DNA of 64,000 nucleotides from Patescibacteria group bacterium (GTDB lineage Bacteria > Patescibacteriota > Patescibacteriia > JAHIZJ01), in NCBI GenBank assembly GCA_028714495.1, contig JAQTMH010000002.1, positions 75,471 through 139,470 on the forward strand, given 5' to 3'. The position numbers and the translations under genes are program-made. The notes beneath the pieces are model-generated. The model ran no database searches. It worked only from the letters and a program-made list of their open reading frames with translations, and was not told where the DNA came from. How positions within the stretch are numbered: the first letter of the stretch is position 1; the number at the start of each line of letters is the position of its first letter. Below, in pieces: positions 25,919 through 50,148 of this stretch.

Positions 25919-27823
25919 ATGCTTGACCTAATTAAAAAGCGCGCGTGGTTTATTGTCATTGGACTGCTGATATTGATGTTCACCCTCGAAATTTCTAGCG
26001 CTGTTAAACAGTCCCAAATAATTGATGAATCGCCTCACATTGTCGCTGGCTACTCCTATCTCAAGACTGGCGATTTTCGTTTAAACCCTGAGCATCCGCC
26101 GCTGATAAAGATGTTGAGTGGCCTGCCGCTTCAGTTTATGAAATTGCGCCCCTTGTCTGAAAACACTTCTTGGTTGACTGGCGAACAATGGTCAGCCGGG
26201 CGGATTTTCCTTTATGAGAATACGGTCGATCACTTCTGGCTGCTTTTCTGGGCCCGGTTGCCTATCATGCTTTTGAGTATACTCTTGGGCTTGATAATTT
26301 TCAAATGGACCAAGTCGCTCTTCGGGGTATTAGGTGGACTCATCGCCTTGCTTTTTTATGTTTTTGATCCGACCACGCTGGCTCACTCGCGCTGGATCAC
26401 CACTGACCTGGGAATCGCGCTTTTTATTTTTGCCACGCTTTATTTTCTGTATCGTTTTTTCCAAAAGCCGACCCTGGGCCGGACCTTCGCTTTTGCTTTC
26501 GTTTTTGCCCTGGCCCTGCTGGCAAAATTTTCTGCGGTAATTTTAATACCGCTTACTTTACTCTACCTCATCATCGCTAAATGGCAGGGCTGGCCGTGTA
26601 CCGTTCTGGTGCACGGCTGGCCCCGTACCGACATGGTACAGGGCTGGCCGAAAAATCAGATAACCCAGCAAATCCCAAAACCAGTTGGTGCCGGCAAGTT
26701 TATCCTGATTACCATAATCGTATCAATCATCACTGTTTGGGGCGTCTATGGCTTCGAATTAAAAAAGCCCTATAGCGATCCCGAAATCCCGGCAGCCTTC
26801 GCGCCGGGTAAATCACAGCAGCATTTTGATAAGGCCTGGCTGACTTTCGTGAATAAATTCACTGACACTGATACAGCCGAAGGAAGGCTGACTGAAAAAT
26901 TGGCCAAGACAATTCCGATACCGGCCTACACTTATATAAAAGGCTTCGCCACTCTGGCCAATCATAATTACTGGGGGCACACTGCTTTTCTGATGGGTAA
27001 GTATTCCGCGGTAGGCTGGTGGTATTACTTTATCGTGGCTTTTCTGGTGAAAACCCCCTTGGTGACGATTCTATTTTTACTGGTGACCATTGGTCTGATC
27101 GGGATTCGAGCCTGGTCCCGACTTAAAAAGGGCTGGATCCAGCCAAATCAACTTGTCGCTACTAAAGGTCTAAATATGATAGGCGGCTTTTTCAAGAAGT
27201 TGTTCAACTTTTTCCGGGGAATTCCTGTTTACTGGTACATGGTAATCCTTACGCCTACGCTTTATTTCATCTGGACGCTTTCCAGTAAATTAAATCTTGG
27301 GGTACGGCATCTCTTGCCAATCTATCCGTTTATCTTTCTGCTCTTTGGCGCATTCACGACCATCAGGCTCGGGCGTCGGGCTAAATTATGGCGGGGTCTA
27401 TTTATCGTTTTGATAATTTTATACATCGCTTCATCAATAATGATCTATCCGAATTACCTATCATATTTTAACGAAGCGGTGGGCGGACCAAGCCAGGGGC
27501 ATAAATATTTGCTTGATTCAAATATCGACTGGGGGCAGGATCTCATCGGCCTGAAAAAATACGTCGACGAGCACCAGCTGGGAAAAATATATTTTCACTA
27601 CTTTGGCACCGCTGACCCAACGGCCTATGGCATTATCCACGAATCCCCTCCCACCAATGAGCAGATCCGCCAGCTGCCGAATTTCAAAGGCACCGTGGCC
27701 ATCAGCGTTTCCGGTCTCTATTCCGAAACTCGGGAATTTTCTTGGCTTCTCAAATACGAACCAATAGACCGAATCGGTTATTCGATTTGGATATACGACA
27801 TCGAGTGTCCCTGTTCAAACTAG
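25919..27823 (+). CDS. GT-C fold membrane glycosyltransferase, PMT/ArnT-like (GT39/GT83 family)
   Basis: 634 aa, polytopic. DE motif in the first loop (IIDESPHIVAG) and HPPL motif. Contains an internal GC-rich tandem repeat (GWPCTVLVHGWPRTDMVQGWP). Confidence 0.75.
   Translation: MLDLIKKRAWFIVIGLLILMFTLEISSAVKQSQIIDESPHIVAGYSYLKTGDFRLNPEHPPLIKMLSGLPLQFMKLRPLSENTSWLTGEQWSAGRIFLYENTVDHFWLLFWARLPIMLLSILLGLIIFKWTKSLFGVLGGLIALLFYVFDPTTLAHSRWITTDLGIALFIFATLYFLYRFFQKPTLGRTFAFAFVFALALLAKFSAVILIPLTLLYLIIAKWQGWPCTVLVHGWPRTDMVQGWPKNQITQQIPKPVGAGKFILITIIVSIITVWGVYGFELKKPYSDPEIPAAFAPGKSQQHFDKAWLTFVNKFTDTDTAEGRLTEKLAKTIPIPAYTYIKGFATLANHNYWGHTAFLMGKYSAVGWWYYFIVAFLVKTPLVTILFLLVTIGLIGIRAWSRLKKGWIQPNQLVATKGLNMIGGFFKKLFNFFRGIPVYWYMVILTPTLYFIWTLSSKLNLGVRHLLPIYPFIFLLFGAFTTIRLGRRAKLWRGLFIVLIILYIASSIMIYPNYLSYFNEAVGGPSQGHKYLLDSNIDWGQDLIGLKKYVDEHQLGKIYFHYFGTADPTAYGIIHESPPTNEQIRQLPNFKGTVAISVSGLYSETREFSWLLKYEPIDRIGYSIWIYDIECPCSN
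26581..26660 (+). repeat. imperfect 27-bp tandem repeat (about 2.7 units) inside the GT-C glycosyltransferase CDS
   Basis: cagggctggccgtgtaccgttctggtg / cacggctggccccgtaccgacatggta / cagggctggccgaaaaatcag, encoding QGWPCTVLV-HGWPRTDMV-QGWPKNQ. Confidence 0.6.
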
Positions 27824-27903: not shown

Positions 27904-27932
27904 TTGACGAAACTTTTTTTTCGTGATATAAT
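27904..27932 (+). promoter_or_regulatory. near-consensus sigma-70 promoter TTGACG-N17-TATAAT for the pilus operon
   Basis: -35 at 27904-27909, -10 TATAAT at 27927-27932, 25 nt before the pilB ATG. Confidence 0.55.
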
Positions 27933-27956
27933 ATATAGGTAAAAATCAAGAAATCT

Positions 27957-29690
27957 ATGCTGAAACCCGATCAAATCAAGGAAATTGTCCTGAAATCAAA
28001 AATCCTGCCCGAAGCAGACCTGAAAAAGGCCATTACTGAGTCAGCAAACGAGAACATGCCTTTTACCGATTATTTAATTGGACAAAAGCTCCTGTCGGAA
28101 AACGGCCTCTATGAAAGCATCGCAAATTATTTCGGTGCTTCTTTTATTGACCTGCGCCGGACCACCATCAGAAAAGATCTGCTTCGAGTTGTCCCCGACA
28201 GTATCGTTCAGGCGCACCAGATCTTGGCTTTTGATCAGGACAACGAAAATATCAAACTGGCGACTACTGACCCGACTGATTTAGAAATTATTGAATTTAT
28301 AAAAAAGAAGACAAACCTTCAACCAGACATCTACGTTACCACACCCTCATCAATAAAAGAGGTTTTGAAGCAATATCATAAAGGGATAAAAGCCAGGTTT
28401 GAGGAGATGGCCACGCCGGGCGAAAAACCCGAAATTCCGGCCGACCAAAAGGATTTAAAAAAATTAGCTCAAGATCTTCCAATTATCAGGATTGTCGATA
28501 CTCTGCTTGAATACGCGATTTATGAAAGCGCTTCTGACATTCACATCGAGCCAAACGAAAAAGACGTTATTGTCCGATACCGAATTGATGGCGTTTTGCG
28601 CGAAGTCATGACCTTGCCAAAAAAAATCCAGTCTGGCGTGGTTGCCAGAATAAAAATTCTTTCAAACCTTAAACTTGATGAGCACCGCCTGCCTCAAGAC
28701 GGCCGCTTTAAAGTCAGTACCGAGGAATACAAGGTCGCTTTTCGTGTTTCAATAATCCCGGTCTACGACGGAGAAAAAATTGTTCTGCGTTTATTAAACG
28801 AGTCAGCTCAGATATTAAGCCTGGAACAAATCGGCCTCCTGCCCAAAGCCTTCAACATTGTCAAAGCCAATATTCAGAAGCCTCATGGCATGATTCTGGT
28901 AACTGGTCCGACTGGCTCAGGCAAAACGACTACCCTCTATACCATCTTAAACATTCTCAATAAACCCGGGGTCAATATTTCAACGGTTGAAGATCCGATC
29001 GAATACCGCATTCCGCGCGTCAATCAAAGCCAGGTGAATCCCAAAATCGGCTTTACCTTCTCGGTCGGCCTGCGCGCCCTTCTCCGCCAGGATCCAAACA
29101 TTATCATGGTGGGAGAAATTCGCGACCTGGAAACAGCCCAAATCGCAGCCAACGCGGCCATGACCGGCCACCTAGTGCTTTCAACCCTGCACACCAACGA
29201 CGCCGTGGGAACTCTGCCACGGTTGCTGGAAATCGGCATCCCCTCTTTTCTCGTTGCCTCGACGACAAACTTGGTGATGGGACAGCGGCTGGTAAGAAAA
29301 ATCTGCCCGAACTGCGTCACCAGCTATAACTTAAGCAAAAAAGCGATTATTGAGCTTGAACGGCAAATCAACTTCAAGGAGCTTCTCTCGACCCTGGAAA
29401 AAGAAGAGGCCATCTCTTCGGCCAAGATCGCGCCTGAATCGCTCCTTTTCTATCGCGGCAAGGGCTGTCGTGAGTGCGGCCAAACCGGCTATAAAGGGCG
29501 GATCGGTATTTATGAAACTTTGGCCGTGGATCATGAAATTGCCGACTTAATTACTAAAAACACGCAACGAGAGCAGCTAATGGAAGTGGCCAGGAGAAAA
29601 GGCATGATTACCATGCTTGAAGATGGTTTTATAAAAGCAAAGATGGGAATCACCAGCGTTGAAGAAGTGCTTCGCGTGACCAAAGATTAA
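27957..29690 (+). CDS. pilB: type IV pilus assembly ATPase PilB/GspE family
   Basis: N-terminal T2SSE_N domain, Walker A GPTGSGKTT, Asp/His boxes, tetracysteine CPNC...CREC. Confidence 0.9.
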   Translation: MLKPDQIKEIVLKSKILPEADLKKAITESANENMPFTDYLIGQKLLSENGLYESIANYFGASFIDLRRTTIRKDLLRVVPDSIVQAHQILAFDQDNENIKLATTDPTDLEIIEFIKKKTNLQPDIYVTTPSSIKEVLKQYHKGIKARFEEMATPGEKPEIPADQKDLKKLAQDLPIIRIVDTLLEYAIYESASDIHIEPNEKDVIVRYRIDGVLREVMTLPKKIQSGVVARIKILSNLKLDEHRLPQDGRFKVSTEEYKVAFRVSIIPVYDGEKIVLRLLNESAQILSLEQIGLLPKAFNIVKANIQKPHGMILVTGPTGSGKTTTLYTILNILNKPGVNISTVEDPIEYRIPRVNQSQVNPKIGFTFSVGLRALLRQDPNIIMVGEIRDLETAQIAANAAMTGHLVLSTLHTNDAVGTLPRLLEIGIPSFLVASTTNLVMGQRLVRKICPNCVTSYNLSKKAIIELERQINFKELLSTLEKEEAISSAKIAPESLLFYRGKGCRECGQTGYKGRIGIYETLAVDHEIADLITKNTQREQLMEVARRKGMITMLEDGFIKAKMGITSVEEVLRVTKD

Positions 29691-29691
29691 T

Positions 29692-30906
29692 ATGACCGAA
29701 TTTCTATACACAGCCAAACGATCAGACGGCTCAGTAATCAAAGAAAGACTGGACGCCGGCAACCAGACCGAGCTTGAAGATAAACTGAAAAGAGACGGGC
29801 TGTCTCTGATTTCCGCTACCGTCGCCCGTAAATCAGACAGTCAAAAAATATCCTGGCTGGATAAACTCAGCCGCGTTTCGTTGGTTGACCGGATGTTCTT
29901 TACCCAAAATCTCGAAGTAATGGTGCGGACTGGTTTTTCGATCGCCAAAGCCTTAAAAACTCTGTCCGCTCAAACCAGCAATAAATATTTCGCCAAGATT
30001 ATCAACCATTTGTCCAGTGAGGTCGAGAAAGGCAAGACTTTGGCTTCCGCTATGCGGCCCTATCCCAAGGTCTTTTCTTCCATTTTTGTGAATATGATCG
30101 AGGCGGGAGAAGTCTCGGGCCAGTTGGAGTCTGTTTTGAAACGGCTGACTCTTCAAATGAAAAAAGATCACGGCTTGATTTCTAAGGTTAAGAGTGCCCT
30201 CACTTATCCGGCAATCATTCTAGTCGCCATGCTCGGTATTGGAACCCTAATGTTCATTTTTGTCATTCCAAAAATTACCAGCATGTACGCCGAGACCTCG
30301 GTGCAACTTCCCTGGGCAACCAAGCTACTGATCACCACTAGCGGCTTTGCTGCAAAAAACGCCTACTATGTTATCGGATCTCTTTTCGCGATAGTCTTTG
30401 GCTTTTTTAGAATAATAAAAACCAGGCGCGGACGAAGAGCTTACCATGCCTTGTTGCTTAAAACCCCAATCTTCGGAAAAATCATAAAAAAAATAAACCT
30501 GGCCAGATTCGCTCGAACGCTAAGCTCGCTTTTGAAAACCGACATTCCCATTGTCCAGGCCTTTCAAATAATATCCAAAACACTGGGCAATGTATATTAT
30601 CAGGAGGTTATGAGCATAGTCGCGGAAAAAGTCAAACAAGGCGTTACCGTTACGTCGGTCCTGGAAAAAAACCTTAAGCTCTTCCCGCCAGTAGTCACGC
30701 AGATAATCGACGTGGGTGAGCAGTCTGGAACGCTTGATACTATTTCTGAAGAGATCGCTGTTTTTTACGAAGATGACGTGGAACAAACAATGTCCACTCT
30801 CTCGACTATCATCGAACCGCTGCTGATGCTTATCCTGGGCGCCGGGGTCGGTCTAATCGCCGTGGCCGTCTTGATGCCGATGTACAATATTGTCGAGGCT
30901 TTCTAA
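29692..30906 (+). CDS. pilC: type IV pilus inner-membrane platform protein PilC/GspF family
   Basis: Two T2SSF repeats; 3 TM helices; 404 aa. Confidence 0.88.
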   Translation: MTEFLYTAKRSDGSVIKERLDAGNQTELEDKLKRDGLSLISATVARKSDSQKISWLDKLSRVSLVDRMFFTQNLEVMVRTGFSIAKALKTLSAQTSNKYFAKIINHLSSEVEKGKTLASAMRPYPKVFSSIFVNMIEAGEVSGQLESVLKRLTLQMKKDHGLISKVKSALTYPAIILVAMLGIGTLMFIFVIPKITSMYAETSVQLPWATKLLITTSGFAAKNAYYVIGSLFAIVFGFFRIIKTRRGRRAYHALLLKTPIFGKIIKKINLARFARTLSSLLKTDIPIVQAFQIISKTLGNVYYQEVMSIVAEKVKQGVTVTSVLEKNLKLFPPVVTQIIDVGEQSGTLDTISEEIAVFYEDDVEQTMSTLSTIIEPLLMLILGAGVGLIAVAVLMPMYNIVEAF

Positions 30907-30909
30907 AAA

Positions 30910-32244
30910 ATGATTAGGAGGAATACAAAAGGAGTAACTCTCATCGAGGTCATTGTTGGACTGGCGATTTTCGCTATGGCCATGGCCGGCATCTATAATC
31001 TCTTTAATTTGGCCACTAAGATGCTGGGTGACAATCGAGCGCGCGTCGACGCGATTGCGATGGCAAATAAACGGATTGAGATGATCCGAAATCTTGCGTA
31101 CGACAATGTCGGCATCACGGGTGGTATCCCAAACGGAACAATTCCACAGACCGAACAGCTGGTCGTAAACAACATTACTTATACCCTCGAAACGGATATC
31201 CGATATGTCGACGACCCTTTTGACGGTACGGCCACTGGCGCCCCGCCTGATACAAATAGCGCTGACTATAAACGCATCCGAATCGAAGTAACCTGGCCGC
31301 GGATGCTGAACAATAAACCCGTTATCTTGGTCACCGACGTGACGCCGAAGGGTATGGAAAAAACAGTCGGCGGTGGAACGATTTTGCTGACCGTATTTGA
31401 CGCCCTAGGACAGCCTGTGCCGTCAGCCGCCGTGCATGTCGAAAATACCGACGTCAACCCGATTGTTAACTATGATACGACAACCCAAGCCAACGGTACA
31501 CTTGTCCTACCCGGCATGCCCCCTTCGATCGAAACCTATGACGTCCGCGTGACCAAGGGCGGCTACAGCACGGATCAAACATATGAAATCGATCCCATCG
31601 CCAATCCCAATCCCACTCGTCCACCCCTGTCGGTGTATTTGAATGTTGTGACGGAAGCCAGCTTCTCTATTGATCGTCTAAGCACGGTGAATATCCAAAC
31701 GTTTGATCAGGCTAGTCAACCACTCCCAAATATCGACTTTACGTTGCGCGGTTCAAAAACAATTGGAACCGATGGCGTCGGTGCCCCGATCTATAAATAC
31801 TCTCAAGCATTCACCACGAACGCGACTGGAGAAATCACGATTTCAGATCTTGAATGGGATTCGTACAACTTTATTATTGATAATGCTGGGATAAATTACG
31901 ACATCGCGGGAGCTAACCCACCGCTTCCGATTAATCTCGATCCAGACGCAACTCAAACAACACAAATTTCACTCGCCACGCCTCACACGAATCATACGCT
32001 TCTCGTCACAGTCCGCGATCAAAACATGGTCCTTATGCCAAACATCGCCGTTCAGCTAAACCGCTTAGTACCACCCTACGATGAAACGCAAACAACCTCC
32101 GCCTGGGGACAGACGTTTTTCCCGTCGCTTGTCCAGGGCGATTACACTATCTTTATCCAAGCAACCGGCTATCAGGATCATAACGAGGTTATAACAATCG
32201 ACGGCCAACGGACCATAGAAATAGTGATGATCCCCCCAATCTAA
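30910..32244 (+). CDS. large prepilin-type protein (class III signal peptide) with three CarboxypepD_reg / transthyretin-like beta-sandwich domains; putative minor pilin or adhesin
   Basis: N-terminus MIRRNTKG|VTLIEVIVGLAIFAMAMAG fits the prepilin G-(F/V)TLIE cleavage/methylation motif. C-terminus has repeated GTIxLxVxDxxGxPxxxAxV...GxYxV blocks. Confidence 0.75.
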   Translation: MIRRNTKGVTLIEVIVGLAIFAMAMAGIYNLFNLATKMLGDNRARVDAIAMANKRIEMIRNLAYDNVGITGGIPNGTIPQTEQLVVNNITYTLETDIRYVDDPFDGTATGAPPDTNSADYKRIRIEVTWPRMLNNKPVILVTDVTPKGMEKTVGGGTILLTVFDALGQPVPSAAVHVENTDVNPIVNYDTTTQANGTLVLPGMPPSIETYDVRVTKGGYSTDQTYEIDPIANPNPTRPPLSVYLNVVTEASFSIDRLSTVNIQTFDQASQPLPNIDFTLRGSKTIGTDGVGAPIYKYSQAFTTNATGEITISDLEWDSYNFIIDNAGINYDIAGANPPLPINLDPDATQTTQISLATPHTNHTLLVTVRDQNMVLMPNIAVQLNRLVPPYDETQTTSAWGQTFFPSLVQGDYTIFIQATGYQDHNEVITIDGQRTIEIVMIPPI

Positions 32245-32247
32245 ACC

Positions 32248-32865
32248 ATGCGCGCCTATTCCAATAAAACCGGATTTACGCTTGTTGAAGCGCTGGTCGC
32301 GCTGGCAATTTTTGGCATTATCTTAGCGATTTTATCAAACTTTTTATTACAGGGGATGCGTTTTCAAACATTTGCCAGCGAACAGCAACAGCAGGTCGAA
32401 TTCGCGCGAAGCAGCGCCCAAACAATGGTTAAAGAATTGCGCGAAGCCGAGCCCGGCGATGATGGTTCATACATACTCAATCGGGCCGAGGATCAGGAGA
32501 TTATCTTTTTTAGCAATATTGATGCCGATCAAGCGACCGAACGCGTCCGGTATTTTCTTGACGGCACGACCTTCAAAAAAGGAATTATCGAACCCAGTGG
32601 CGAACCGATCATTTATGACCAGGCAACCGAGACAGTAACCACGCTCGTAGAATACATACGCAATGGAACGACACCGATCTTCTTGTACTACAACGGGGAC
32701 TATCCGGGCGACATGACACACAATCCCCTGCCCACGCCGACCCGTTTAACCGAAACAAAGTTATTAAACGTATATTTACGGATTAATGTCAACGAAAGCC
32801 AGGCGCCAAATCAAACCGAGGTTATAACCGAGGTTCAAATACGTAATTTGAAAAATAATTTATGA
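32248..32865 (+). CDS. prepilin-type N-terminal cleavage/methylation domain protein (pilin/pseudopilin)
   Basis: MRAYSNKTG|FTLVEALVALAIFGIIL; 205 aa. Confidence 0.8.
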   Translation: MRAYSNKTGFTLVEALVALAIFGIILAILSNFLLQGMRFQTFASEQQQQVEFARSSAQTMVKELREAEPGDDGSYILNRAEDQEIIFFSNIDADQATERVRYFLDGTTFKKGIIEPSGEPIIYDQATETVTTLVEYIRNGTTPIFLYYNGDYPGDMTHNPLPTPTRLTETKLLNVYLRINVNESQAPNQTEVITEVQIRNLKNNL

Positions 32866-34256
32866 TACGTATTATACGAAATAATAAATCACAAGGCGCT
32901 ACCCTGGTTATGGCGATCGTTTTGTTGACGATTTATATGCTTATGCTTGGCGGTATTATCAACCTCGTCATGTCGCAAAACAAGCAAACTATTCGACAAA
33001 TCTCCTGGGAACGCTCACTCGCCATCGCGGAGGCTGGCGCAAACTTCAGCCGTTGGCGCTTAGTCCACGACTCTAATGATTTCAGTTTTTCGGGCACCTA
33101 TGATTACAGCGACCCCCAGGGTGGAGTTATCGGTCAGTATTCCTTGGAAATAACCGAACCCGTTACCTGCACCACCATGGTTACGGTCAAGTCAACGGGT
33201 TGGACGCTCGACTTCCCAAACGTCAAGCGAACTGTCAAAGTACGCTATAACCGAGCTTCATTGGCCCAATATGCTTTTTTGACTAATTCAGATATCTGGA
33301 TTGGCGAGAACGAAGACGTACAAGGGCCGCTTCACTCAAATGGCGGCGTTCGAATGGATGGCACCCAAAACGCCGAATCGACATCATCTAAAGAAACCTA
33401 TACCTGCCAGCCGATGCATGGTTGTAATCCCGCCACGCAAAAGCCCGGCATCTGGGGCAGCGGCAGTGGCGGCGCCAGCGGCTTATGGAGATTTCCCGTG
33501 TCAGTCGTAGATTTTAATGTCATTACGACCGACCTGGCTGATCTGAAGACTAAAGCGCAGAATGGCGGGTATTACTTTGAACCGTCTGGCGCCTTTGGCT
33601 ATCATATCATTTTTAAAAATACCGGCGCCTTTGATCTCTATAAAGTTACTGAGCTAGAACCGGATGTCTGGGGTTGCGACACCGAGTGGAATTGCGCTTG
33701 GGATTCGAACGACATTAAACACGAAGAACTTGTCGACCGGTATGATTTGGCGGAAGATCAATGCGATATCCAAAACCTGATCTTTGTTGAAGATAAAAAA
33801 GTCTGGGTTGACGGAGTGTTAAAAGAAAAAGCTACAGTCGCGGCGGCTCAATTTCCCGATACTGCCGCCACTAATTCGTCCATAATCATTAACGGCAACA
33901 TTACACGCGCCGATCCCGCTGACACTATGCTTGGTCTTATCGCTCAAAAAAACGTACTGGTGCCATATTACTCGCCGAATATTTTGGAAATCCAGGCGGT
34001 CATGGTCGCCCAGAAAGGCGCGGTCCAACGTTTATATTATGCCGGCAATGTAAAAAATAAAATACTGGTTCGAGGTTCAATCATCACCAACAACGTCTGG
34101 ACCTGGTCATGGGTGAATGGTGGTGGCACGGTAGTTTCTGGGTATGAGCTCACGGAATCGCATTTCGAACCGGCCTTAATCTACGCTCCGCCGCCGTTCT
34201 TTCCCGGCACTGGCGAATACAATTTTATCTCCTGGGAGGAACTTCCTCAGGAGTAA
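32862..34256 (+). CDS. PilX-like minor pilin / pilus assembly protein with Cys-rich globular domain
   Basis: N-terminus KSQG|ATLVMAIVLLTIYML (prepilin-like, no Glu5); 464 aa. Confidence 0.6.
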   Translation: MIRIIRNNKSQGATLVMAIVLLTIYMLMLGGIINLVMSQNKQTIRQISWERSLAIAEAGANFSRWRLVHDSNDFSFSGTYDYSDPQGGVIGQYSLEITEPVTCTTMVTVKSTGWTLDFPNVKRTVKVRYNRASLAQYAFLTNSDIWIGENEDVQGPLHSNGGVRMDGTQNAESTSSKETYTCQPMHGCNPATQKPGIWGSGSGGASGLWRFPVSVVDFNVITTDLADLKTKAQNGGYYFEPSGAFGYHIIFKNTGAFDLYKVTELEPDVWGCDTEWNCAWDSNDIKHEELVDRYDLAEDQCDIQNLIFVEDKKVWVDGVLKEKATVAAAQFPDTAATNSSIIINGNITRADPADTMLGLIAQKNVLVPYYSPNILEIQAVMVAQKGAVQRLYYAGNVKNKILVRGSIITNNVWTWSWVNGGGTVVSGYELTESHFEPALIYAPPPFFPGTGEYNFISWEELPQE

Positions 34257-34318
34257 AGCTTTTAATTATCCGAGCGGCCTGGTAAAATAGTAGCAGTAGG
34301 CGGAATCTAAAACTTATT

Positions 34319-35401
34319 ATGTCTTTTTTCCAAAACAACCAAAACGCCATCGGGCTTGATATTAGTGATTTAACCTTGCGCGCCGTCCAATTCAAGGGTC
34401 AGGGCCGAGGCCTGGCTTTTGAAGGATACGGTCAGATTGACGTTCCCCCGGGAATTATAAAAAATGGTGAAATTCTCGAGCCTAGAACCGTCTCTGATTT
34501 AATTAAAAGAATGATCTCCCGCCCGAGTTTTGGCCGTTTCTCTACTAAAAATGTCATAGCTTCTTTACCCGAACGTCGATCATTTATAAAAGCGCTGGAA
34601 ATACCCCAGATTGACAGCCAGCAGTTAGAGGTAACGATTCGTCAAGAAATGAGCCAGCATGTTCCTTTTTCGGCCGATGAAATATACCTCGACTGGCAAA
34701 TGTTTAAGTCTGGGGCCTCGGCCGATACGTCCAGGGTGCTAATTGGAGCAACTCCAAAGTCGATTGTTGACTCATACATCGCGGCCCTCGAGGACGCTGA
34801 CTTGAGGCCAGTCTCCTTGGTTATCGAATCAATGGCTATTGCCTACGCTCTCATCCCGCCAAACGCCGAAAAGAACACTTCGGCCATGATTTTGGACATC
34901 GGTCTCAACCGGACTAGTTTCCTGGTTTTTGACCAGGGGGCGGTTCGTTTCAGCGCCTCAAGCAAGGTAATCTCCGGGTCGGCAATGACTCGGCTGATTG
35001 CCCAAAAACTTAGTCTGAGTAACGATCAGGCTGAAGAGGCGAAAAGGCTGTGCGGACTTGATCCAACCCAGGGTAAAGCCGTCATTCCCAAAACTCTGAT
35101 GCCGGCGATTGACCAATTAGCCAAACAAATCGAGAAATTTTTACAATATTACAAGACCCATGTGCCTCAGGCCAACGAAATTTCTCAGATCATTCTGGCG
35201 GGTGGCGGAGCCAATTTGAAAAACCTGACCAAGGTATTAAGCGAGAAGCTTGGCCGAAAGGTTGTTCTCGGAAACCCTTGGTGCCAATTCGAGCATCTCC
35301 AAAAAACCAAAGTTATTCCCAGCCAGCAATATCTCTCACAACCAACCTCTTTCGGCCTCGGTCTGCTTGGACTGGCAAACCTTTCTCGAAAAAAGAAATG
35401 A
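34319..35401 (+). CDS. pilM: type IV pilus assembly protein PilM (actin-like ATPase)
   Basis: IGLDISDLTLRAVQFK N-terminus and ILAGGGANL are actin-fold motifs. Confidence 0.85.
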   Translation: MSFFQNNQNAIGLDISDLTLRAVQFKGQGRGLAFEGYGQIDVPPGIIKNGEILEPRTVSDLIKRMISRPSFGRFSTKNVIASLPERRSFIKALEIPQIDSQQLEVTIRQEMSQHVPFSADEIYLDWQMFKSGASADTSRVLIGATPKSIVDSYIAALEDADLRPVSLVIESMAIAYALIPPNAEKNTSAMILDIGLNRTSFLVFDQGAVRFSASSKVISGSAMTRLIAQKLSLSNDQAEEAKRLCGLDPTQGKAVIPKTLMPAIDQLAKQIEKFLQYYKTHVPQANEISQIILAGGGANLKNLTKVLSEKLGRKVVLGNPWCQFEHLQKTKVIPSQQYLSQPTSFGLGLLGLANLSRKKK

Positions 35402-35967
35402 TTGTATTAAACCTCTTACCACCAGATAAAAAAATCCTGCTTGCCTCGGAACACAATCTCCTCCAAATAAAAAGGGCGGCGATGATCTTTTTGGGCTGCG
35501 GACTATTGGTAGTTGGCCTGGCCTTAAGTTGTCGTATCCTCTTAAGCGGGGAGCTGAAAAAATTGGATGAGGAGATCAATCAAATAAAACAATTATCTGA
35601 AAATACAGGCAATACCGCTGGTGACCTGATTAAAAGAATTGCTTTGAAATCCAATGTCATAGCCGAAGCTCAAAAGAACTTCATTCCCTGGTCAAGCGTC
35701 CTGTCTCTCATCGGCCAGTCAGCCGGTCAAAATATTCAATTGAAAACCTGCTCTTTTGACGCTGAAAAGAAAACCTTTCAGATTCAAGGCCAGGCCAAAA
35801 CTCGAAATGACCTATTAAATTTCAAAACTTCGTTGGAAAAACTGACTTTTCTCGAAAACCTCAACGCTCCGATTACTAATTTGATTCAAAAGGAAGATAT
35901 CTCCTTTCAATTCTCGGGAACCCTTAATCCAGAAAATATTGCCAAACATGAAAATACAGGGTCATAA
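35398..35967 (+). CDS. pilN: PilN-like pilus assembly protein
   Basis: ATG at 35398 overlaps the pilM stop (ATGA). Single TM (IFLGCGLLVVGLAL) plus coiled coil. The track ORF 35278..35967 starts upstream, inside pilM. Confidence 0.65.
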   Translation: MIVLNLLPPDKKILLASEHNLLQIKRAAMIFLGCGLLVVGLALSCRILLSGELKKLDEEINQIKQLSENTGNTAGDLIKRIALKSNVIAEAQKNFIPWSSVLSLIGQSAGQNIQLKTCSFDAEKKTFQIQGQAKTRNDLLNFKTSLEKLTFLENLNAPITNLIQKEDISFQFSGTLNPENIAKHENTGS

Positions 35968-36505
35968 ATCAATCATAATCATCGGCGGCGCGCTTATTAT
36001 TATAGTGGGATTATTGGTTTTTGCCTTTTTGCCTCTTAATCGCACTATCGATGATCTCAAAACTCAGATCCTGGGCAAACGCATCGACTCAGCCCTACTT
36101 AAACAACAACAAAACACCGCCGCCCGTTCCCAAGACGAGGCCAGTTTAGTTGAAAAAGATGAAGAGCTTCGGGCCTATTTTATTCAAAAGAGTAAATTTT
36201 TGGAATTCATTTCACAAATTGAAGAGCTGGCAAAAAACAACAGCGTTAAGGAAGAAGTCACTCTGACCGAATTTCCAAATAACACCCAGGAGGTGTTTAC
36301 CCACCCGATCTCAGTTAGCTTTACCGGTGACTATAACAATATATTAAAACTGATGGCCGAGCTTGAATCGCTCAACTATTATCTGGATTTTGCCCAAATC
36401 ACTCTGAGCAATGCCGGAGATGGCGGCCTCAATGTCAATACCAACACTTCTAAACAAAGTCAGCTCCAGGTTTCCTTAACCGGCTTAACTTATTGGCAAA
36501 AATAA
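35939..36505 (+). CDS. pilO: PilO-like pilus assembly protein
   Basis: N-terminal TM (IIIIGGALIIIVGLLVFAF), coiled coil, 188 aa; follows pilN. Confidence 0.6.
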   Translation: MPNMKIQGHKSIIIIGGALIIIVGLLVFAFLPLNRTIDDLKTQILGKRIDSALLKQQQNTAARSQDEASLVEKDEELRAYFIQKSKFLEFISQIEELAKNNSVKEEVTLTEFPNNTQEVFTHPISVSFTGDYNNILKLMAELESLNYYLDFAQITLSNAGDGGLNVNTNTSKQSQLQVSLTGLTYWQK

Positions 36506-36514
36506 CCCACTAAG

Positions 36515-36805
36515 ATGAAACTTTTAAGCGAACCGTTAAAAAAATATATCATAAAAATCGTTTGGCTGACCAGTTTCCTTTTCGTGGCCTGGGTTATTTT
36601 TTCCTTTTACCAAACGATAAACGAGGCAATCCTGAATCCTCCGCCGATTGAGCAAAACCAAGTAAGCGAACGCCAGGGCAAGCTAAATACCAAGTTCCTG
36701 GAAGATATCAAGACTTTCCACGCCGCCAAAACGAAAAAAGTTCTTCCGGCTGAACTCGAGCGAGACCCTTTTGAACCCCTTGCCCTTGACATCCCAGCTG
36801 AATAA
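36515..36805 (+). CDS. small membrane-anchored protein, PilP-like (conserved DPFEP motif)
   Basis: 96 aa; TM helix then ...ELERDPFEPL. Confidence 0.45.
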   Translation: MKLLSEPLKKYIIKIVWLTSFLFVAWVIFSFYQTINEAILNPPPIEQNQVSERQGKLNTKFLEDIKTFHAAKTKKVLPAELERDPFEPLALDIPAE

Positions 36806-36851
36806 GTATAAACTTTTCTTTAGTAATTATTAAGCACAAGAAAATCCGTTT

Positions 36852-37133
36852 ATGGCCCATACAAAATCAGGTGGCTCAACTAATCTCGGCCGCGATTCCC
36901 AGAGTCAACGTCTAGGCGTAAAAATTTTTGGCGGCGAGCCCGCCCGCCGGGGTCAGGTTATTATCCGTCAACGCGGGACTAAATTTCACCCGGGCAAAAA
37001 CGTCAAAGTCGGCAAAGACGATACGCTGTTTGCGCTGGTTGATGGTGTGGTCGAGTTTATTCGAAAAAAACACCGCCGGTTTGATGGCAATCTCAAACCC
37101 GCGGTATTCGTCAACGTTGTGCCACAAAAATAA
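36852..37133 (+). CDS. rpmA: 50S ribosomal protein L27
   Basis: [29 protein letters not shown]...[24 protein letters not shown] is a canonical L27. Confidence 0.93.
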
Positions 37134-37147
37134 TTCAATCCATAAAA

Positions 37148-37183
37148 CCAAAACCCGCTAAACAGCGGGTTTTTTGTTTTTTG
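37148..37183. terminator. bidirectional intrinsic terminator AAACCCGC-taaaca-GCGGGTTTTTTGTTTTTT
   Basis: Sits between convergent rpmA (+) and pyrG (-). Confidence 0.65.
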
Positions 37184-42103: not shown

Positions 42104-43495
42104 GTGTGTTATTATAAAAACAAGTTTACTCCTCCTATTTTACCCAGTAATCCAAAAAACGTCAAAATGACCCGTCGAACGCGCCGGATTCTCTATCTTT
42201 CTTTCATTCTGATGTTCTTTATATTGGCTCCGATTCTGGTGCTCTACTCTTCTGGCTACCGTTTTGACTGGTCCAGAAAACAGCTTCTGAAGACAGCCTT
42301 ACTCCGTCTCAACACTGAGCCCGGGGGCGCCACAGTCTATGTCAATGGTCAGCCTCAAAAGAATAAAACCCCCACCGCCATAAACAATCTTTTGCCTGGT
42401 ACCTACGATATCCGGGTTGAAAAGGACGGCTATCTTCCCTGGCAAAATTCCATCAGTCTAAAATCTAAAACTGTCGAATTTCTGACCGATATCACTTTAT
42501 TCCGAGACACCTCGCCTGAACTTGTCCTGGATAAAACGATTGGCAAATTGACGGCCCTGCCGGATTCTAACGAAGCGCTCTTTGTGACGCCCATTGAAAA
42601 CGGTTTTGAACTTAACAAGCTCAACCTGGCAAACCAGAAAGAAACGAATATGCTAACACGGCCGACTGAAATAAATATTGAAACAGAGGCCGTAAACAAC
42701 CACTTAATTATTTCTTCCCTTGCCAACGGCCTTCCGGTTTATGAAGACATGGACATCACCGTGCCGGAGAAAGCCACGGCAATAAATTGGGCCCCGAAAG
42801 ACATTTCAAAGCTCCAGTGGCTGGACAATAAAAGCTTCTTCGGGATTGCCGAGGGAGTCCTGTGCCAGATTTTTCTGGAAAAACCTGAATTTAATTGCGC
42901 TGGCCCAGCCGTGACCGAGTTTTTACTGCAGGATAAATATGTTTACTATCTTTCCTCCGATATTGAATCTACCCTGCTCTACCGAGCGCCAATTAATAAT
43001 CTCGAGGGGGAGCTGATTGTCCGGCTGCCAAAATCCGAAGACTACCGCTTTATCCCAAAATCAGAACCATTGGTGGTTTTTATCGACGGCCAGACCGAAG
43101 ACCTTGTCCTGATTGATCCGGAGAACACCCCCGGGAAGATAACCACCATACCCAGGACAGCCAAAGATGCTTTTTGGCATGAGGCGGGGGAACAATTGGT
43201 ATATTATAACGATTTTGAGATTTGGCGCTGGAATATTGAAACCGATGAACGAACGCTTCTGACGCGCTTAAGCGAGCCGATCCAATGGGCCAATCGCTAT
43301 GGCTGGTTTGATTACGTGATTTTTTCCCAGGAAAAAAACATTCAAGCCCTTGAGCTTGAAAGTCACACTCCATCCCGAACCACCACCTCCCTGGTCAATA
43401 ATGCCACGGGTCACTTTATCCTTGACCGTGAAAGTAAAAACCTTTTTTATATCGGCAGTAACGGGGATAGACTCTGGAAACGCCCCTTGCGTTAA
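42104..43495 (+). CDS. membrane-anchored PEGA-domain protein, hypothetical
   Basis: TM near the N-terminus, then a PEGA domain (TEPGGATVYVNGQPQ...GTYDIRVEKDGYLPW). The true start is probably the internal Met at 42167, which leaves an 85-bp divergent promoter region with murA. Confidence 0.6.
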   Translation: MCYYKNKFTPPILPSNPKNVKMTRRTRRILYLSFILMFFILAPILVLYSSGYRFDWSRKQLLKTALLRLNTEPGGATVYVNGQPQKNKTPTAINNLLPGTYDIRVEKDGYLPWQNSISLKSKTVEFLTDITLFRDTSPELVLDKTIGKLTALPDSNEALFVTPIENGFELNKLNLANQKETNMLTRPTEINIETEAVNNHLIISSLANGLPVYEDMDITVPEKATAINWAPKDISKLQWLDNKSFFGIAEGVLCQIFLEKPEFNCAGPAVTEFLLQDKYVYYLSSDIESTLLYRAPINNLEGELIVRLPKSEDYRFIPKSEPLVVFIDGQTEDLVLIDPENTPGKITTIPRTAKDAFWHEAGEQLVYYNDFEIWRWNIETDERTLLTRLSEPIQWANRYGWFDYVIFSQEKNIQALELESHTPSRTTTSLVNNATGHFILDRESKNLFYIGSNGDRLWKRPLR

Positions 43496-46857: not shown

Positions 46858-48516
46858 TTACTCTGTGAATTGGAAGGTGGAAAGAAGCTGTGTGCGGAGT
46901 GAAGCATCACTATAGAATGCGTTTGTAGTATTGTCGCACTCACCGAAATACAATTTCATTATCTTATCGGTAGAAAGTGCTGTTTGAATCATATCTCCCC
47001 CGCAACCCGCGTCGCCTTCGCGGTACTGATAGCCGCTTTGCGTCCCTACTGTCACGGTGGTCGTAGCCTGTTTACCATAGATGCCTATGATGTTATTTGG
47101 ATCGAGTGGTCCAGCTATAAAATTAATCTTGAATGCCTTGGAGTGGTCCGTAGCTGAGAATGACACTCCATCAGCACCGGTAATGTTGGCATAGGTCATA
47201 TCAGCTGGATACCTCAGAGAAAAATGATGCTCAGTGTTCGTATATGTTAACCAATCCGCAGTTTCGTCGGTGAATTGGAAAGTGGAGAGAAGTTGGTCGA
47301 TGTAATTCAGATTATTCTCTGTTTCGGCGGTCAAGTTTGTACGATCATACAAATTCCTGAGATCGTTTCTTCGGGCGCTCTCATTTTGATCCTCGCTCCC
47401 TAAACATTCTTGCGAAGATGGCAATGAGGCTGATAAAAGAAGACCGACATAATCCCCTGCCGTAAGATTAAGCCGGACTTCTCGGAGATTCCAAAACGAG
47501 CATTCATCACCCCAGGCAACAAAGGCATCATAAGTCTGTTGGCCATCAATCGTTGTGCGTCGGCAAATGTTTGTTGCCGTATCATTGAGGACACCTTCGT
47601 TTTCGCACCCTAACGCGAGGTTCTCGCCGCCATTGTATTTTAATTGCTTAAACTGGTTAAAATCACTCGAGCTTCCAATGAACGAAATACTCGCGGCTTG
47701 CGTAAAGTTGATTTGAATGGCCTTACCAGAAAATATTTTCGAACCTGTTTCTTGAACACTCATTGACGAGTCAATGGCTTTTGCGGTCACCTCACCCCAA
47801 GCTGGTGGATAGCTAAAAGAAATTCTAAGGTCTGCATTCGTATATGTTTTCCAGTCAGCGGTTTCGTCGGTGAATTGGAAAGAAGCCACCAATTGAGTAA
47901 AGTCGTCATGTGAGGGAACCGCTGTAACATTTGCCGAGTCATATTCCAAACCCCAGGTTTTACCGTTGTGGTTGAAATAATAATAATCAATAGTGGCTGA
48001 TGTCGCACCCTTGACCCTATGCTTACCAACACCGAGCATACCAGTTATGCGGTAGGCGGTTTCACCAGCGACAGTGGTTGTGGTTGGCTCTAGATTGCCA
48101 CCTGCTTGACTCGAAGCGAAAGCTGAAAGATCACCTTGGTATGTATCGTATAATACGACTCCAATCGGACCAGGCCCAACCGCATCAGTGTACCTCGGAC
48201 CATTCTTGTCCGGATCGGTATTGGCGATTATGCGAACGGCCGTACCATTTGTGTATTTTCGGACAACTGCTTGATTCGGATATTCAAAACTAATGCCAAG
48301 GTCGGCATTAATATATGTGTTGTTTGTCGCCGTATTCGTGTTCTTGTTTGATTTAATCGTTAAACCGGCAGTATTGTTGTCATCAAGTTCTGTGAAAGTA
48401 TTGTAAAAAAAGAAAGCGCCGCCGGCAAAAAGGGCAAAAGCGATAACAATCGCCAGAGCGATGACAGGAGAGAAGCCGGGAAAAGTAATTTTGGGTTGAA
48501 TTTTCTTTTTTGTCAT
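46858..48516 (-). CDS. surface-anchored protein (N-terminal TM, N/T-rich linker) with three tandem copies of an uncharacterised 'W-TYTN ... FQFT' domain
   Basis: Domains start at ...NNTYINADLGISFEYP, DETADWKTYTNADLRISFSYP and DETADWLTYTNTEHHFSLRYP. They end at QLVASFQFTD, QLLSTFQFTD and QLLSTFQFTE; the last is the C-terminus. Confidence 0.6.
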   Translation of the reverse strand: MTKKKIQPKITFPGFSPVIALAIVIAFALFAGGAFFFYNTFTELDDNNTAGLTIKSNKNTNTATNNTYINADLGISFEYPNQAVVRKYTNGTAVRIIANTDPDKNGPRYTDAVGPGPIGVVLYDTYQGDLSAFASSQAGGNLEPTTTTVAGETAYRITGMLGVGKHRVKGATSATIDYYYFNHNGKTWGLEYDSANVTAVPSHDDFTQLVASFQFTDETADWKTYTNADLRISFSYPPAWGEVTAKAIDSSMSVQETGSKIFSGKAIQINFTQAASISFIGSSSDFNQFKQLKYNGGENLALGCENEGVLNDTATNICRRTTIDGQQTYDAFVAWGDECSFWNLREVRLNLTAGDYVGLLLSASLPSSQECLGSEDQNESARRNDLRNLYDRTNLTAETENNLNYIDQLLSTFQFTDETADWLTYTNTEHHFSLRYPADMTYANITGADGVSFSATDHSKAFKINFIAGPLDPNNIIGIYGKQATTTVTVGTQSGYQYREGDAGCGGDMIQTALSTDKIMKLYFGECDNTTNAFYSDASLRTQLLSTFQFTE

Positions 48517-48531
48517 AATACGAAATTATAA

Positions 48532-50148
48532 TTAGTCCTTAACAGTGAATTTTATAACCTTTTGATTTTGTGACACTAGTAGGTTATAGTTAAGCCCAAT
48601 TGCAATATCTTGTACCCACTGCGCCCGATAAAAAATTTGTTTTGCATTTGTAAACTTTTCTCCATCAAAAACATACGTATCTCCAACAGTACCGATATAC
48701 CAGTATTTTTTATCACTCGCGATTGTCGTCACACTCATTTCTTCTCCTGTATCAGTCACTGTTTTATTACCGTCGAATTTATAAACATGTGCATTTTCCT
48801 GGCCGCGTGTTCCGAGAAGCCAATATGATCCATTCCATGCACCCTTGCTGATATGATAATCATTAAGAGCGGATACACGGGTAATGTTATCCCCATTATA
48901 CCAATATGCTTTTCCATCGTAAGTCAAAATGAGCCATCTTGCGCCGTCCCAAATGGCCTCCTCAATATTTTGAACATTATTATCTAATTGGTCTGGTATC
49001 TGGCTGGTAAGATCGGTGAATGTCGATCCATCATAACGGATCAGTTGCCCAAGCCTGTTCCCGAGGAGCCAATATTGGCCGTTCCAGCCGATGGCATCAA
49101 AACCCGTTAAACCAGACGAATTGGGCATTTGGCTGGATAAATTGATCATCGTGTTCCCATCAAACTCGAGAAGGGGCGCGTTCGGACTTTGAACGAGTGA
49201 AATAATCCAGTTCTGGCCATTACTTCTCAAGTTAGCCACTGATCGGTATTCTGGTCTATCAACCAAAGGTAATTTATTGGTAAGATCCACAACCCCGTTA
49301 GAATCATACTGAAATAGTTTACTGTTTGTTCCACCGATCAACGCGGTCGAACCATTAATATTAACTGTTTCTATTCCATTTCCACCAAAACCAGAAAATA
49401 ATCCACTGATATCCTCAACCTCAAGGTCTTGCAAATCCTCTATGCCAGTGAATTGGAATGTTGAAAGAACCAATTCAGCAATAGATCCTTGTTCAGGATG
49501 AACAGTTGTCTGAAGTTTGTAGTTTATTCCGTTCCGTTCAATACATAGGATATATTGAACATTGCCCTTATCGTCAATTTTTTGTCCGCGCGTTCCTTCA
49601 ACACTATCGATTGTTGTCTTGCTGGTATTGCTTAAATCCTGTAGGCACCATGACTGTGCTTGATTAGTCTGTATTTCAAAATCAATATAATACATACCCA
49701 ACTGTAAAGTGGGCAAATATCTATCGTTATATTCATCAATATTGTAGAAATTATTCATCTGAATGTGTGTGCTTGTCGATATTGATGTTTGTCTTAAATC
49801 TGGTGGATATTTAAATGAGACACTCTCGATAGTATCGGTATATGTATCCCAATATTTCAGTCGTTCATTGGTGACTAACGAGTTCGTATTCAAATTTACG
49901 CTAGAATTAGTGTTTCTGTTTAGGTTTGCATCGAGATCGTCATTTAGATTGGTGCTTGCCACCGTATTGGTATTATTGTTCGTTTGAATTGATGTAATCG
50001 TGTTGGTATTATCATTTTTAGTCTGAATCGATAGATAATAAAATACTCCGCCGACGATCAAAGCGATGGCAACTACTATGACTATCCCAATCGCCGATGA
50101 AAACCCTGCTTTTGAAGTTTTAGTTGTCTTTTTCTTCGTTCTTTTCAT
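48532..50148 (-). CDS. surface-anchored protein, paralogue of the previous one: TM, N/T-rich linker, one W-TYT...FQFT domain, C-terminal W-repeat (beta-propeller-like) domain
   Basis: KYWDTYTDTIESVSFKYP ... ELVLSTFQFTG. Then repeats NGQNWIISL / NGQYWLLGN / DGARWLILT / NGSYWLLGT / KKYWYIGT. Confidence 0.6.
   Translation of the reverse strand: MKRTKKKTTKTSKAGFSSAIGIVIVVAIALIVGGVFYYLSIQTKNDNTNTITSIQTNNNTNTVASTNLNDDLDANLNRNTNSSVNLNTNSLVTNERLKYWDTYTDTIESVSFKYPPDLRQTSISTSTHIQMNNFYNIDEYNDRYLPTLQLGMYYIDFEIQTNQAQSWCLQDLSNTSKTTIDSVEGTRGQKIDDKGNVQYILCIERNGINYKLQTTVHPEQGSIAELVLSTFQFTGIEDLQDLEVEDISGLFSGFGGNGIETVNINGSTALIGGTNSKLFQYDSNGVVDLTNKLPLVDRPEYRSVANLRSNGQNWIISLVQSPNAPLLEFDGNTMINLSSQMPNSSGLTGFDAIGWNGQYWLLGNRLGQLIRYDGSTFTDLTSQIPDQLDNNVQNIEEAIWDGARWLILTYDGKAYWYNGDNITRVSALNDYHISKGAWNGSYWLLGTRGQENAHVYKFDGNKTVTDTGEEMSVTTIASDKKYWYIGTVGDTYVFDGEKFTNAKQIFYRAQWVQDIAIGLNYNLLVSQNQKVIKFTVKD

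Follow-up and report, generated by a model that had tools for sequence, protein, structure and literature searches.

A predicted secretin-less type IV pilus assembly cassette of Patescibacteria and its ComZ-like minor pilin candidate

Organization of the Cassette

Type IV pilus (T4P) loci are well documented in Patescibacteria, a group that also goes by the name candidate phyla radiation (CPR) (PMC9763046, PMC10633639, PMC11623550), and one such locus is contained in a 64,000-nt stretch (the window) of contig JAQTMH010000002.1 from the Patescibacteria group bacterium assembly GCA_028714495.1. Within the span examined, 27904-37183 on the + strand, ten open reading frames (ORFs; 27957-37133) encode pilB, pilC, three pilin-like proteins, pilM, pilN, pilO, a 96-aa gene, and rpmA. 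The region is likely to be a core type IVa pilus (T4aP)-like, secretin-less assembly cassette of the kind usual for Patescibacteria, in which the three pilin-like proteins, of 444, 205, and 464 aa, form a minor-pilin tip/priming complex. As a genome feature the operon itself is ordinary for Patescibacteria, and both the T4P loci of this group and modular pilins carrying PF13620 are already known; the new part is the annotation of the 464-aa protein as ComZ-like, which is a useful and testable lead and not a new kind of system.

Gene identities were assigned by Pfam and NCBIfam scans of the proteins of the window, and they bear out the initial annotation of a T4P assembly operon. The genome is patescibacterial, the proteins of the window being 100% identical to NCBI entries that bear the label 'Patescibacteria group bacterium'. 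The pilB gene (27957..29690, +) encodes a 577-aa extension ATPase with a T2SSE domain (2.8e-129) preceded by an N-terminal MshEN domain (1.9e-14), and its best-scoring NCBIfam family is TIGR02538 (9.1e-173, yet under the equivalog cutoff). It is followed by pilC (29692..30906, +), encoding the 404-aa inner-membrane platform, which is matched by T2SSF in two stretches (2.9e-54) and by GspF/PilC models (1e-96 to 1e-81). Downstream of the three pilin-like genes, pilM (34319..35401, +) encodes a 360-aa actin-like cytoplasmic alignment protein (PilM_2 1e-48; TIGR01175 8.1e-54, above cutoff) and is succeeded by genes for two bitopic proteins. The 189-aa PilN-like protein (35398..35967, +), whose ATG overlaps the pilM stop codon, matches PilN at E 0.013 only, and the assignment was accepted on its conserved position, size, and topology, the first two being kept in related loci. 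The PilO-like protein (35948..36505, +; 185 aa from its ATG, with an alternative TTG start at 35939) is matched by PilO (4.9e-5; 23.9 bits against a Pfam cutoff of 22) and by GspM (2.6e-6). A PilB-type ATPase, a PilC/GspF platform, PilM-N-O, and pilins with a class III signal together place the cassette among type IVa-like pilus systems.

The ten genes are tightly packed, with intergenic gaps of, in order, 1, 3, 3, -4, 62, -4, -20, 9, and 46 nt, and, as the initial annotation had also recognized, they lie behind a near-consensus promoter. This predicted sigma-70-type site (27904..27932, +; TTGACG, a 17-nt spacer, and a TG-extended TATAAT, matching at 11/12 positions) is the top-scoring promoter-like site of the region, and the pilB ATG begins 25 nt past the end of its -10 hexamer; promoter-like sites are frequent in the region, 24 being found against 15.3 expected from shuffles.

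Several components of a complete pilus are missing from the neighborhood. The 64-kb window contains three prepilin-like N-termini only, those of the trio, and no second PilB/PilT-like (T2SSE) gene, and no secretin was found among the ORFs scanned in it, so that the absence of PilQ, PilT, and PilD reported earlier for the window is upheld by the family scans. Secretin absence would fit the single-membrane envelope that is generally attributed to CPR bacteria. Extension from the end genes added ~16 kb of flanking sequence, and no pilD, pilT, or pilin gene was detected there, leaving both window and flanks free of a major pilin and of the prepilin peptidase PilD. A scan of the flanks of 87 related loci for extra pilins and PilT-like genes returned a single additional prepilin ORF of canonical type and nothing PilT-like, from which it follows that the major pilin is as a rule encoded elsewhere and that the lack of a major pilin, PilD, and PilT is a property of the cassette type and not a peculiarity of the window. 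Elsewhere in the window, two adjoining proteins of ~540 aa (46858-48516 and 48532-50148, both on the - strand) show a basic N-terminus that leads through a Gly into a long hydrophobic helix (PG↓FSPVIALAIV... and AG↓FSSAIGIVIV..., the arrow separating positions -1 and +1), which gives them a prepilin-like look with no E+5; PsbP_2 is present in one of the pair, and Pfam gave no match for the other.

The Three Pilin-Like Proteins

The 464-aa protein (32862..34256, +), the last and largest of the trio, is annotated as 'hypothetical protein' in every source and has no Pfam domain and no family at threshold in Pfam or NCBIfam; its assignment as a candidate ComZ-like/GspK-like tip pilin comes from an AlphaFold2 (AF2) model and a Foldseek search. 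The model (mean predicted local distance difference test, pLDDT, 91.7; predicted template-modeling score, pTM, 0.83) consists of a long alpha1 helix (residues 11-69), a four-stranded pilin sheet (78-133), a large beta-rich, solenoid-like domain (139-434), and a final strand (449-461). Its best match in the PDB is Thermus thermophilus ComZ (6QVI; E 2.2e-10, prob 1.0, ~560 aligned columns), all three chains of which are matched at E 2e-10 to 2e-9, and ice-binding beta-solenoids rank next. The model thus shares with ComZ the combination of a pilin-like domain and a large beta-solenoid domain.

ComZ itself is built from a pilin domain resembling GspK, into which a beta-solenoid is inserted ahead of the last strand; it lacks canonical pilin motifs and has an ice-binding protein as the closest relative of its solenoid, binds DNA and the neighboring pilin PilA2, is needed for transformation, is sterically restricted to the pilus tip, and has no positive patch (PMC6561018). 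The 464-aa protein resembles ComZ of T. thermophilus HB27 in that a very large domain of beta-solenoid type comes after a pilin-like N-terminal one, in having no canonical pilin motif, in the location of its gene beside those of other minor pilins, and in its second-tier structural matches, the ice-binding beta-solenoids. It differs in being ~90 residues shorter with undetectable sequence similarity, in coming from a secretin-less CPR bacterium whereas ComZ comes from a diderm, and in being preceded by two minor pilins where ComZ is preceded by three. Its ectodomain, moreover, is acidic (pI 4.78 and a net charge of ~-18 for the protein; family median pI 5.15).

The N-terminus of the 464-aa protein (...KSQG↓ATLVM) keeps G-1 and has Met at +5, with no E+5. 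In the family members that could be scored, position +5 is never Glu (61/61), being occupied by L, M, I, F, and others, hydrophobic or otherwise non-acidic. The class III signal that the initial annotation had attributed to both large proteins is therefore present in the 444-aa protein, with G-1 and E+5, and incomplete in the 464-aa protein, with G-1 and no E+5. GspK, a known tip pilin, also lacks the canonical motif. The missing E+5 does not refute a pilin identity of the 464-aa protein, because GspK and ComZ are likewise without canonical motifs and the model matches ComZ; the absence of E+5 together with the retained pilin helix (11-69) is a trait of GspK/PilX-type tip pilins. By sequence, NCBIfam and Pfam scans of the members did not place the 464-aa protein in GspK/PilX families: the GspK match is faint (E 0.086 for the window protein; best 0.0054 among 5/66 members) and far under cutoff, and a few members also match ComGG faintly. 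Membership of the 205- and 464-aa families in GspI, GspJ, or GspK could accordingly not be established by sequence, scans of all members having given sub-threshold matches only.

The 464-aa family is large, with at least 795 homologues in a word-indexed search and relatives in 542 GTDB species genomes, and an exhaustive profile search returned 366 clusters, formed at 50% identity, when cut at E<=1e-30, a number that rises to 2265 with E<=1e-3. A cluster of polar residues at the start of the solenoid (E151, H158, N160, R164, D166) is invariant in it. Two loci (L071, L074) encode ~620-aa (621 aa) ComZ-like variants with extra sequence near the N-terminal part. Weak structural and hidden Markov model matches also connect the family with the tapirins of Caldicellulosiruptor (6N2B), which have a beta-helix; these matches are far weaker than that to ComZ. 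Tapirins are encoded with T4P loci and bind polysaccharide, and they are not pilins, lacking an N-terminal pilin domain. The literature searched contained no paper that mentions ComZ together with Patescibacteria or CPR, which supports, and does not prove, an unreported link; the ComZ-like identity of this 'hypothetical' protein and the fixed three-gene module across hundreds of CPR species appear to be unreported in the searchable literature.

The 444-aa protein (30910..32244, +) is a modular minor pilin candidate with a class III signal (MIRRNTKG↓VTLIE) and matches to N_methyl (1.3e-7), to CarboxypepD_reg in two stretches (8.2e-19), to SpaA prealbumin-like (3.3e-8), and to CarbopepD_reg_2 (6.5e-7), and it accordingly has the composition of a modular type IV pilin, N_methyl plus at least one non-T4P domain. 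In its AF2 model, built from 58 homologues (pLDDT 91.5), alpha1 (11-60) and a four-stranded pilin beta-sheet (81-144) are followed by three separate tandem prealbumin/CnaB-like beta-sandwiches at ~156-242, 247-343, and 348-439. Pfam and the model thus agree with the early description of one large pilin bearing three CarboxypepD_reg-like beta-sandwiches. The top Foldseek matches in the PDB are the Bacillus anthracis TIE protein and the sortase pilins PitA, BcpA, SpaA, and RrgB, that is, tandem stalk domains of Gram-positive surface proteins, so that AlphaFold and Foldseek, the route by which the initial annotation had proposed to characterize the two large proteins, led to sortase-pilin stalk folds for one and to ComZ for the other. 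A function of the beta-sandwiches as an adhesin is plausible; because the folds nearest to them are those of sortase-pilin stalks from Gram-positive bacteria, the modules could equally serve as spacers or as binders.

The 444-aa family has at least 519 homologues, and +5 is E or D in 35/50 of the members in which it could be scored. Length ranges from 360 to 1526 aa among relatives spanning at least half the query; in some genomes the first pilin of the trio reaches 1426-1526 aa with fn3 and MG4 domains (long ORFs at L006, 4102-8382, and L018, 1526 aa). Searches of PDB sequences with the profiles of the 464-, 444-, and 205-aa families gave nothing past matches to the N-terminal pilin helix and generic beta-sandwiches. 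Modular pilins were catalogued in 2021, with N_methyl plus PF13620 among the 15 most frequent architectures and CPR sequences as many of the representatives shown (PMC8179133). The 444-aa protein resembles the modular pilins of Raynaud et al. (2021), such as Streptococcus sanguinis PilB and PilC (PMC8179133), in joining an IPR012902/N_methyl pilin module to domains that are not specific to T4P; it differs in having three tandem prealbumin/CnaB-like modules where theirs have one functional module, and in the wide variation of module number among its relatives (360-1526 aa).

The 205-aa protein (32248..32865, +) is a minor pilin candidate with a canonical signal (TG↓FTLVE) and an N_methyl match (1.3e-8), and its globular domain belongs to no known family in Pfam or NCBIfam. 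Among the 62 members of its family that were scanned, sub-threshold matches covering the N-terminal helix only were obtained to ComGE (36), ComGF (25), GspJ (22), and GspI (18).

Conservation and Synteny in Related Genomes

Related loci were taken from the best 80 of the 542 GTDB species genomes, ranked by match to the 464-aa protein, and the ORFs of all fetched loci were searched with the ten window proteins. Where the record names a lineage, the best 80 genomes are almost all Patescibacteria, including Portnoy-, Nealson-, Kuenen-, Falkow-, Gribaldo-, Kerfeld-, and Doudnabacteria, Paceibacter, and Parcubacteria. Several cassettes (L009, L034, L035, L038, L040, L041, and others) lie on contigs of 0.5-0.77 Mb from third-party 'binchicken' metagenome-assembled genomes whose titles read 'uncultured Gammaproteobacteria bacterium' or 'uncultured Candidatus Saccharibacteria bacterium', taxonomic labels that look like unreliable placeholders.

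The order pilB-pilC-[444-like]-[205-like]-[464-like]-pilM-pilN-pilO is nearly universal, occurring in most of the 80 species-level loci, and the three pilin-like genes co-occur strictly. The machinery is divergently oriented in two loci, and in eight (L006, L018, L025, L065, L069, L078, L079, L083) the trio stands without adjoining machinery. The 205-like (~200 aa) and 464-like (~465 aa) members are steady in size and the 444-like member varies greatly. The pilins had at first been described as atypically large; since the same order and sizes recur across Patescibacteria genomes, they are the norm of the lineage.

Median identity to the window proteins, computed in the same genomes, is highest for PilB (51.5%), followed by the 464-aa protein (44.6%), the 205-aa protein (42.5%), PilC (41.4%), the 444-aa protein (40.0%), PilM (32.2%), PilN (27.0%), and PilO (25.7%), so that among loci ranked by their match to it the 464-aa protein is less conserved than PilB and more conserved than PilC, PilM, PilN, and PilO. 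Published comparisons stress the poor conservation of patescibacterial pilins, to which the 464-aa ComZ-like member is an exception. A conserved, unannotated ComZ-like pilin would offer one defined experimental target across many CPR lineages.

A Candidate Minor-Pilin Tip Complex

The arrangement of the cassette suggests a mechanism in which PilB would act as the ATPase, PilC as the platform, and PilM, PilN, and PilO as the membrane alignment complex, to which the 96-aa single-pass membrane protein probably belongs as well. The 444-, 205-, and 464-aa proteins would be minor pilins and not the fibre-forming major pilin, and the trio most likely assembles first on the platform, primes polymerization of a major pilin encoded elsewhere, and ends as the tip. 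The cap would be the 464-aa protein, a GspK/ComZ-type pilin without E+5 and with a large beta-solenoid-like domain. The three beta-sandwiches of the 444-aa canonical prepilin, lineage-variable in number, may stand out from the pilus tip and act there as a stalk or for binding, and the 205-aa protein would be the third, canonical partner; rpmA would simply be the next gene.

GspI-J-K have the same priming/tip role in type II secretion, as do the minor pilins that accompany ComZ in Thermus. The trio shares with GspI-GspJ-GspK of the type II secretion system (T2SS), and with FimU/PilV-PilW-PilX of T4aP, the adjacency of minor-pilin genes for which priming and capping have been proposed, and in these sets too the last and largest member lacks E+5 and has an extra domain grafted on the pilin fold. 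The likeness has limits: GspK and GspJ matches of the trio are faint and confined to the N-terminal helix, the domain inserted in the 464-aa protein is beta-solenoid-like whereas that of GspK is an alpha-domain, the first member of the trio has three extra beta-sandwiches, there is no GspH/FimU-like fourth member in the cassette, and a heterotrimer of the kind formed by GspI-J-K is putative here, by analogy. Saccharibacteria have large minor pilins with accessory domains (PilX), without canonical PilD signal, that are proposed tip proteins (PMC11623550). Their T4P-1 and T4P-2 resemble the present cassette in having T4aP-like PilB, C, M, N, and O, no secretin, and several minor pilins, the largest of which have accessory domains and no predicted PilD signal; unlike the window cassette, locus one of TM7x also encodes PilT, PilD, and the major pilin (PMC11623550).

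A number of points weigh against this interpretation. The tip location, priming role, and complex formation of the trio are inferred by analogy with GspI-J-K, Thermus ComZ/PilA2, and the PilX proteins of Saccharibacteria, and GspI- and GspJ-like roles of the 444- and 205-aa proteins are drawn from gene order and weak N-terminal-helix matches. The ComZ match is structural only, with 12% identity and TM-scores of ~0.28, and the 66-member profile of the 464-aa family retrieved no ComZ chain at E<=10 from PDB sequences; insertion of the solenoid before the last pilin strand is likewise a putative feature of the model. Because the 80 loci were picked for their resemblance to the 464-aa protein, its conservation may look higher than it is. 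That this genome makes a working pilus is also an assumption, the major pilin, PilD, and PilT having been found neither in the window nor in the ~16 kb flanks.

The composition of the fibre itself could be read differently. The 205- and 444-aa proteins both carry the canonical G↓F/V-T-L-I/V-E signal, and there is no small major pilin in the window, its flanks, or 86/87 related loci, as would be expected if one of the two were the major subunit of a thick or decorated pilus with no separate major pilin. This is very unlikely, given that the matches of the 205-aa family are to the minor pilins ComGE, ComGF, GspJ, and GspI (ComGC in one member only), that the trio is found apart from the machinery in other genomes, like an accessory module, and that the major pilins of Saccharibacteria are small proteins, their large pilins being minor (PMC11623550). 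Packing into a fibre would, in addition, be hard for a subunit that measures 444-1526 aa and bears a rigid tandem stalk, much as in the steric argument made for ComZ (PMC6561018).

With the trio taken as minor pilins, the solenoid of the 464-aa protein may bind DNA, bind a glycan, or be a purely structural cap. That the protein is the DNA receptor of a competence pilus, feeding ComEC-dependent uptake for transformation or nucleotide scavenging, is suggested by its best structural match being a DNA-binding, transformation-required pilin (PMC6561018), by conservation of the family that is unusual for an exposed pilin and would fit a universal ligand such as DNA, and by the wide occurrence of competence genes and T4P in CPR, Saccharibacteria being naturally competent (PMC10633639). 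The proposal is nevertheless doubtful: with no sequence similarity to ComZ, the DNA-binding lysines of the latter cannot be mapped on the 464-aa protein, the ectodomain is acidic (yet ComZ too is without a positive patch; PMC6561018), a structural capping or priming role explains the high conservation equally well, and in Saccharibacteria T4P are essential and comEC is not, which means that T4P do more than DNA uptake (PMC10633639). The solenoid could instead be a glycan-binding or -cleaving tip module, comparable to a tapirin, tailspike, or lyase, that acts on the wall of a host or prey, with the 444-aa protein as a host-specific adhesin. Weak tapirin matches (6n2b in Foldseek, and NCBIfam in one member of the 464-aa family), the invariant E151, H158, N160, R164, and D166, and the classification of PF13620 as a carbohydrate-binding-like fold (PMC8179133) are in keeping with this, and in Saccharibacteria the tip pilins PilX1 and PilX2 are similar to lectins and to glycoside hydrolases, with host binding being inhibited by sugars (PMC11623550). 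However, the matches to tapirin and to ice-binding proteins are weak (E 0.01-0.1), Pfam and NCBIfam detected no catalytic family in the 464-aa protein or its family members, the invariant polar residues could be structural, and a host-specific function predicts more sequence variation than is observed, all of which makes a glycan-directed module rather improbable as well.

T4P are essential in the sole genetically tractable Patescibacteria, for which the role of the tip minor pilins has been listed as an open question (PMC11665869, PMC11623550). A broader, speculative proposal, for which the prospects appear slim, is that the 464-aa family is a universal CPR pilus cap, the counterpart of ComZ, and serves as receptor for extracellular DNA or another universal polymer, with the beta-sandwich pilin giving host specificity. 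If true, the tip of the pilus would carry the long-sought receptor with which these auxotrophic ultra-small bacteria catch DNA or such a polymer.

The 96-aa Gene and rpmA

Between pilO and rpmA lies the gene for a small single-pass membrane protein of 96 aa (36515..36805, +) for which neither Pfam nor NCBIfam gave a match. In 31/33 related loci with enough sequence, pilO is succeeded by a comparable ORF. These ORFs share a basic N-terminus and one transmembrane helix; in many of them an 'LYxNFYQTI'-like motif comes after the helix, and most have (D/N)PF at the C-terminus. The 96-aa protein is thus a real, conserved, unnamed component, and it may be a fourth alignment-complex subunit of CPR pili. 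Its first description as 'PilP-like' could not be retained, there being no family match and the wrong architecture: the N-terminal transmembrane helix is followed by just ~60 residues and no lipobox is seen by eye. PilP identity was rejected on the absence of the lipoprotein and beta-sandwich architecture, and no secretin partner was seen in the window.

The final gene, rpmA (36852..37133, +), encodes the 93-aa ribosomal protein L27 (Ribosomal_L27 2.8e-33; TIGR00062 above cutoff). It stands alone, the usual rplU-rpmA pairing being broken here, and no homologue of rplU (L21) was found anywhere in the 64-kb window. As the initial annotation had stated, the pil genes run into rpmA without a terminator: the first intergenic terminator-like site past the promoter is a bidirectional intrinsic hairpin at 37150..37173 (10-bp stem, 5 GC pairs, T-runs on both strands), which sits between the convergent rpmA and pyrG. 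A second predicted promoter-like site (36786..36814, +; TTGACA-17-TAAACT, 10/12) straddles the end of the 96-aa gene just upstream of rpmA.

Read-through into rpmA from the pil promoter is therefore possible, and rpmA probably has its own promoter as well. The cassette is directly followed by L27 in two clades (the window's own, L001-3/L008/L009/L071, and L020/L034/L040-42). Seven further loci have L27 at a distance of 2-3.7 kb downstream on the same strand, and the rest lack it. The co-transcription claimed at first is thus possible, as no terminator intervenes; because of the separate promoter-like site and adjacency in two clades only, it is no conserved design. A stronger form of the claim, that rpmA belongs obligatorily to the transcription unit of the pil genes and couples L27 supply to pilus gene expression, could draw on the shared strand, the 46-nt gap with no terminator before 37150, the recurrence of L27 behind or near the cassette, and the absence of the usual partner rplU. 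It is distinctly unlikely in view of the promoter-like site immediately upstream of rpmA and of the absence of L27 in most related loci with enough downstream sequence, and an essential ribosomal gene would hardly rely on a pilus promoter alone.

Neighboring Genes

Scans of the whole 64-kb window for tRNA genes and for Rfam families at gathering threshold returned none. Directly upstream of pilB, a PMT_2 (GT-C fold) glycosyltransferase (25919-27823, +) could be a pilin glycosyltransferase; its adjacency to pilB is limited to the closest clade (L001, L002, L008, L009, L071, L074). In other loci, which come from Nealsonbacteria-like as well as other lineages, pilB has directly upstream of it a histidine kinase together with one or two response regulators (L004, 1642-3034; L007, 1828-3586), an arrangement that suggests two-component control and is absent from the window. 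Near the cassette on its other side, a 463-aa protein with a PEGA domain, a beta-sandwich surface module, is encoded at 42104-43495 (+), and its position is kept in the close relatives L001-L003.

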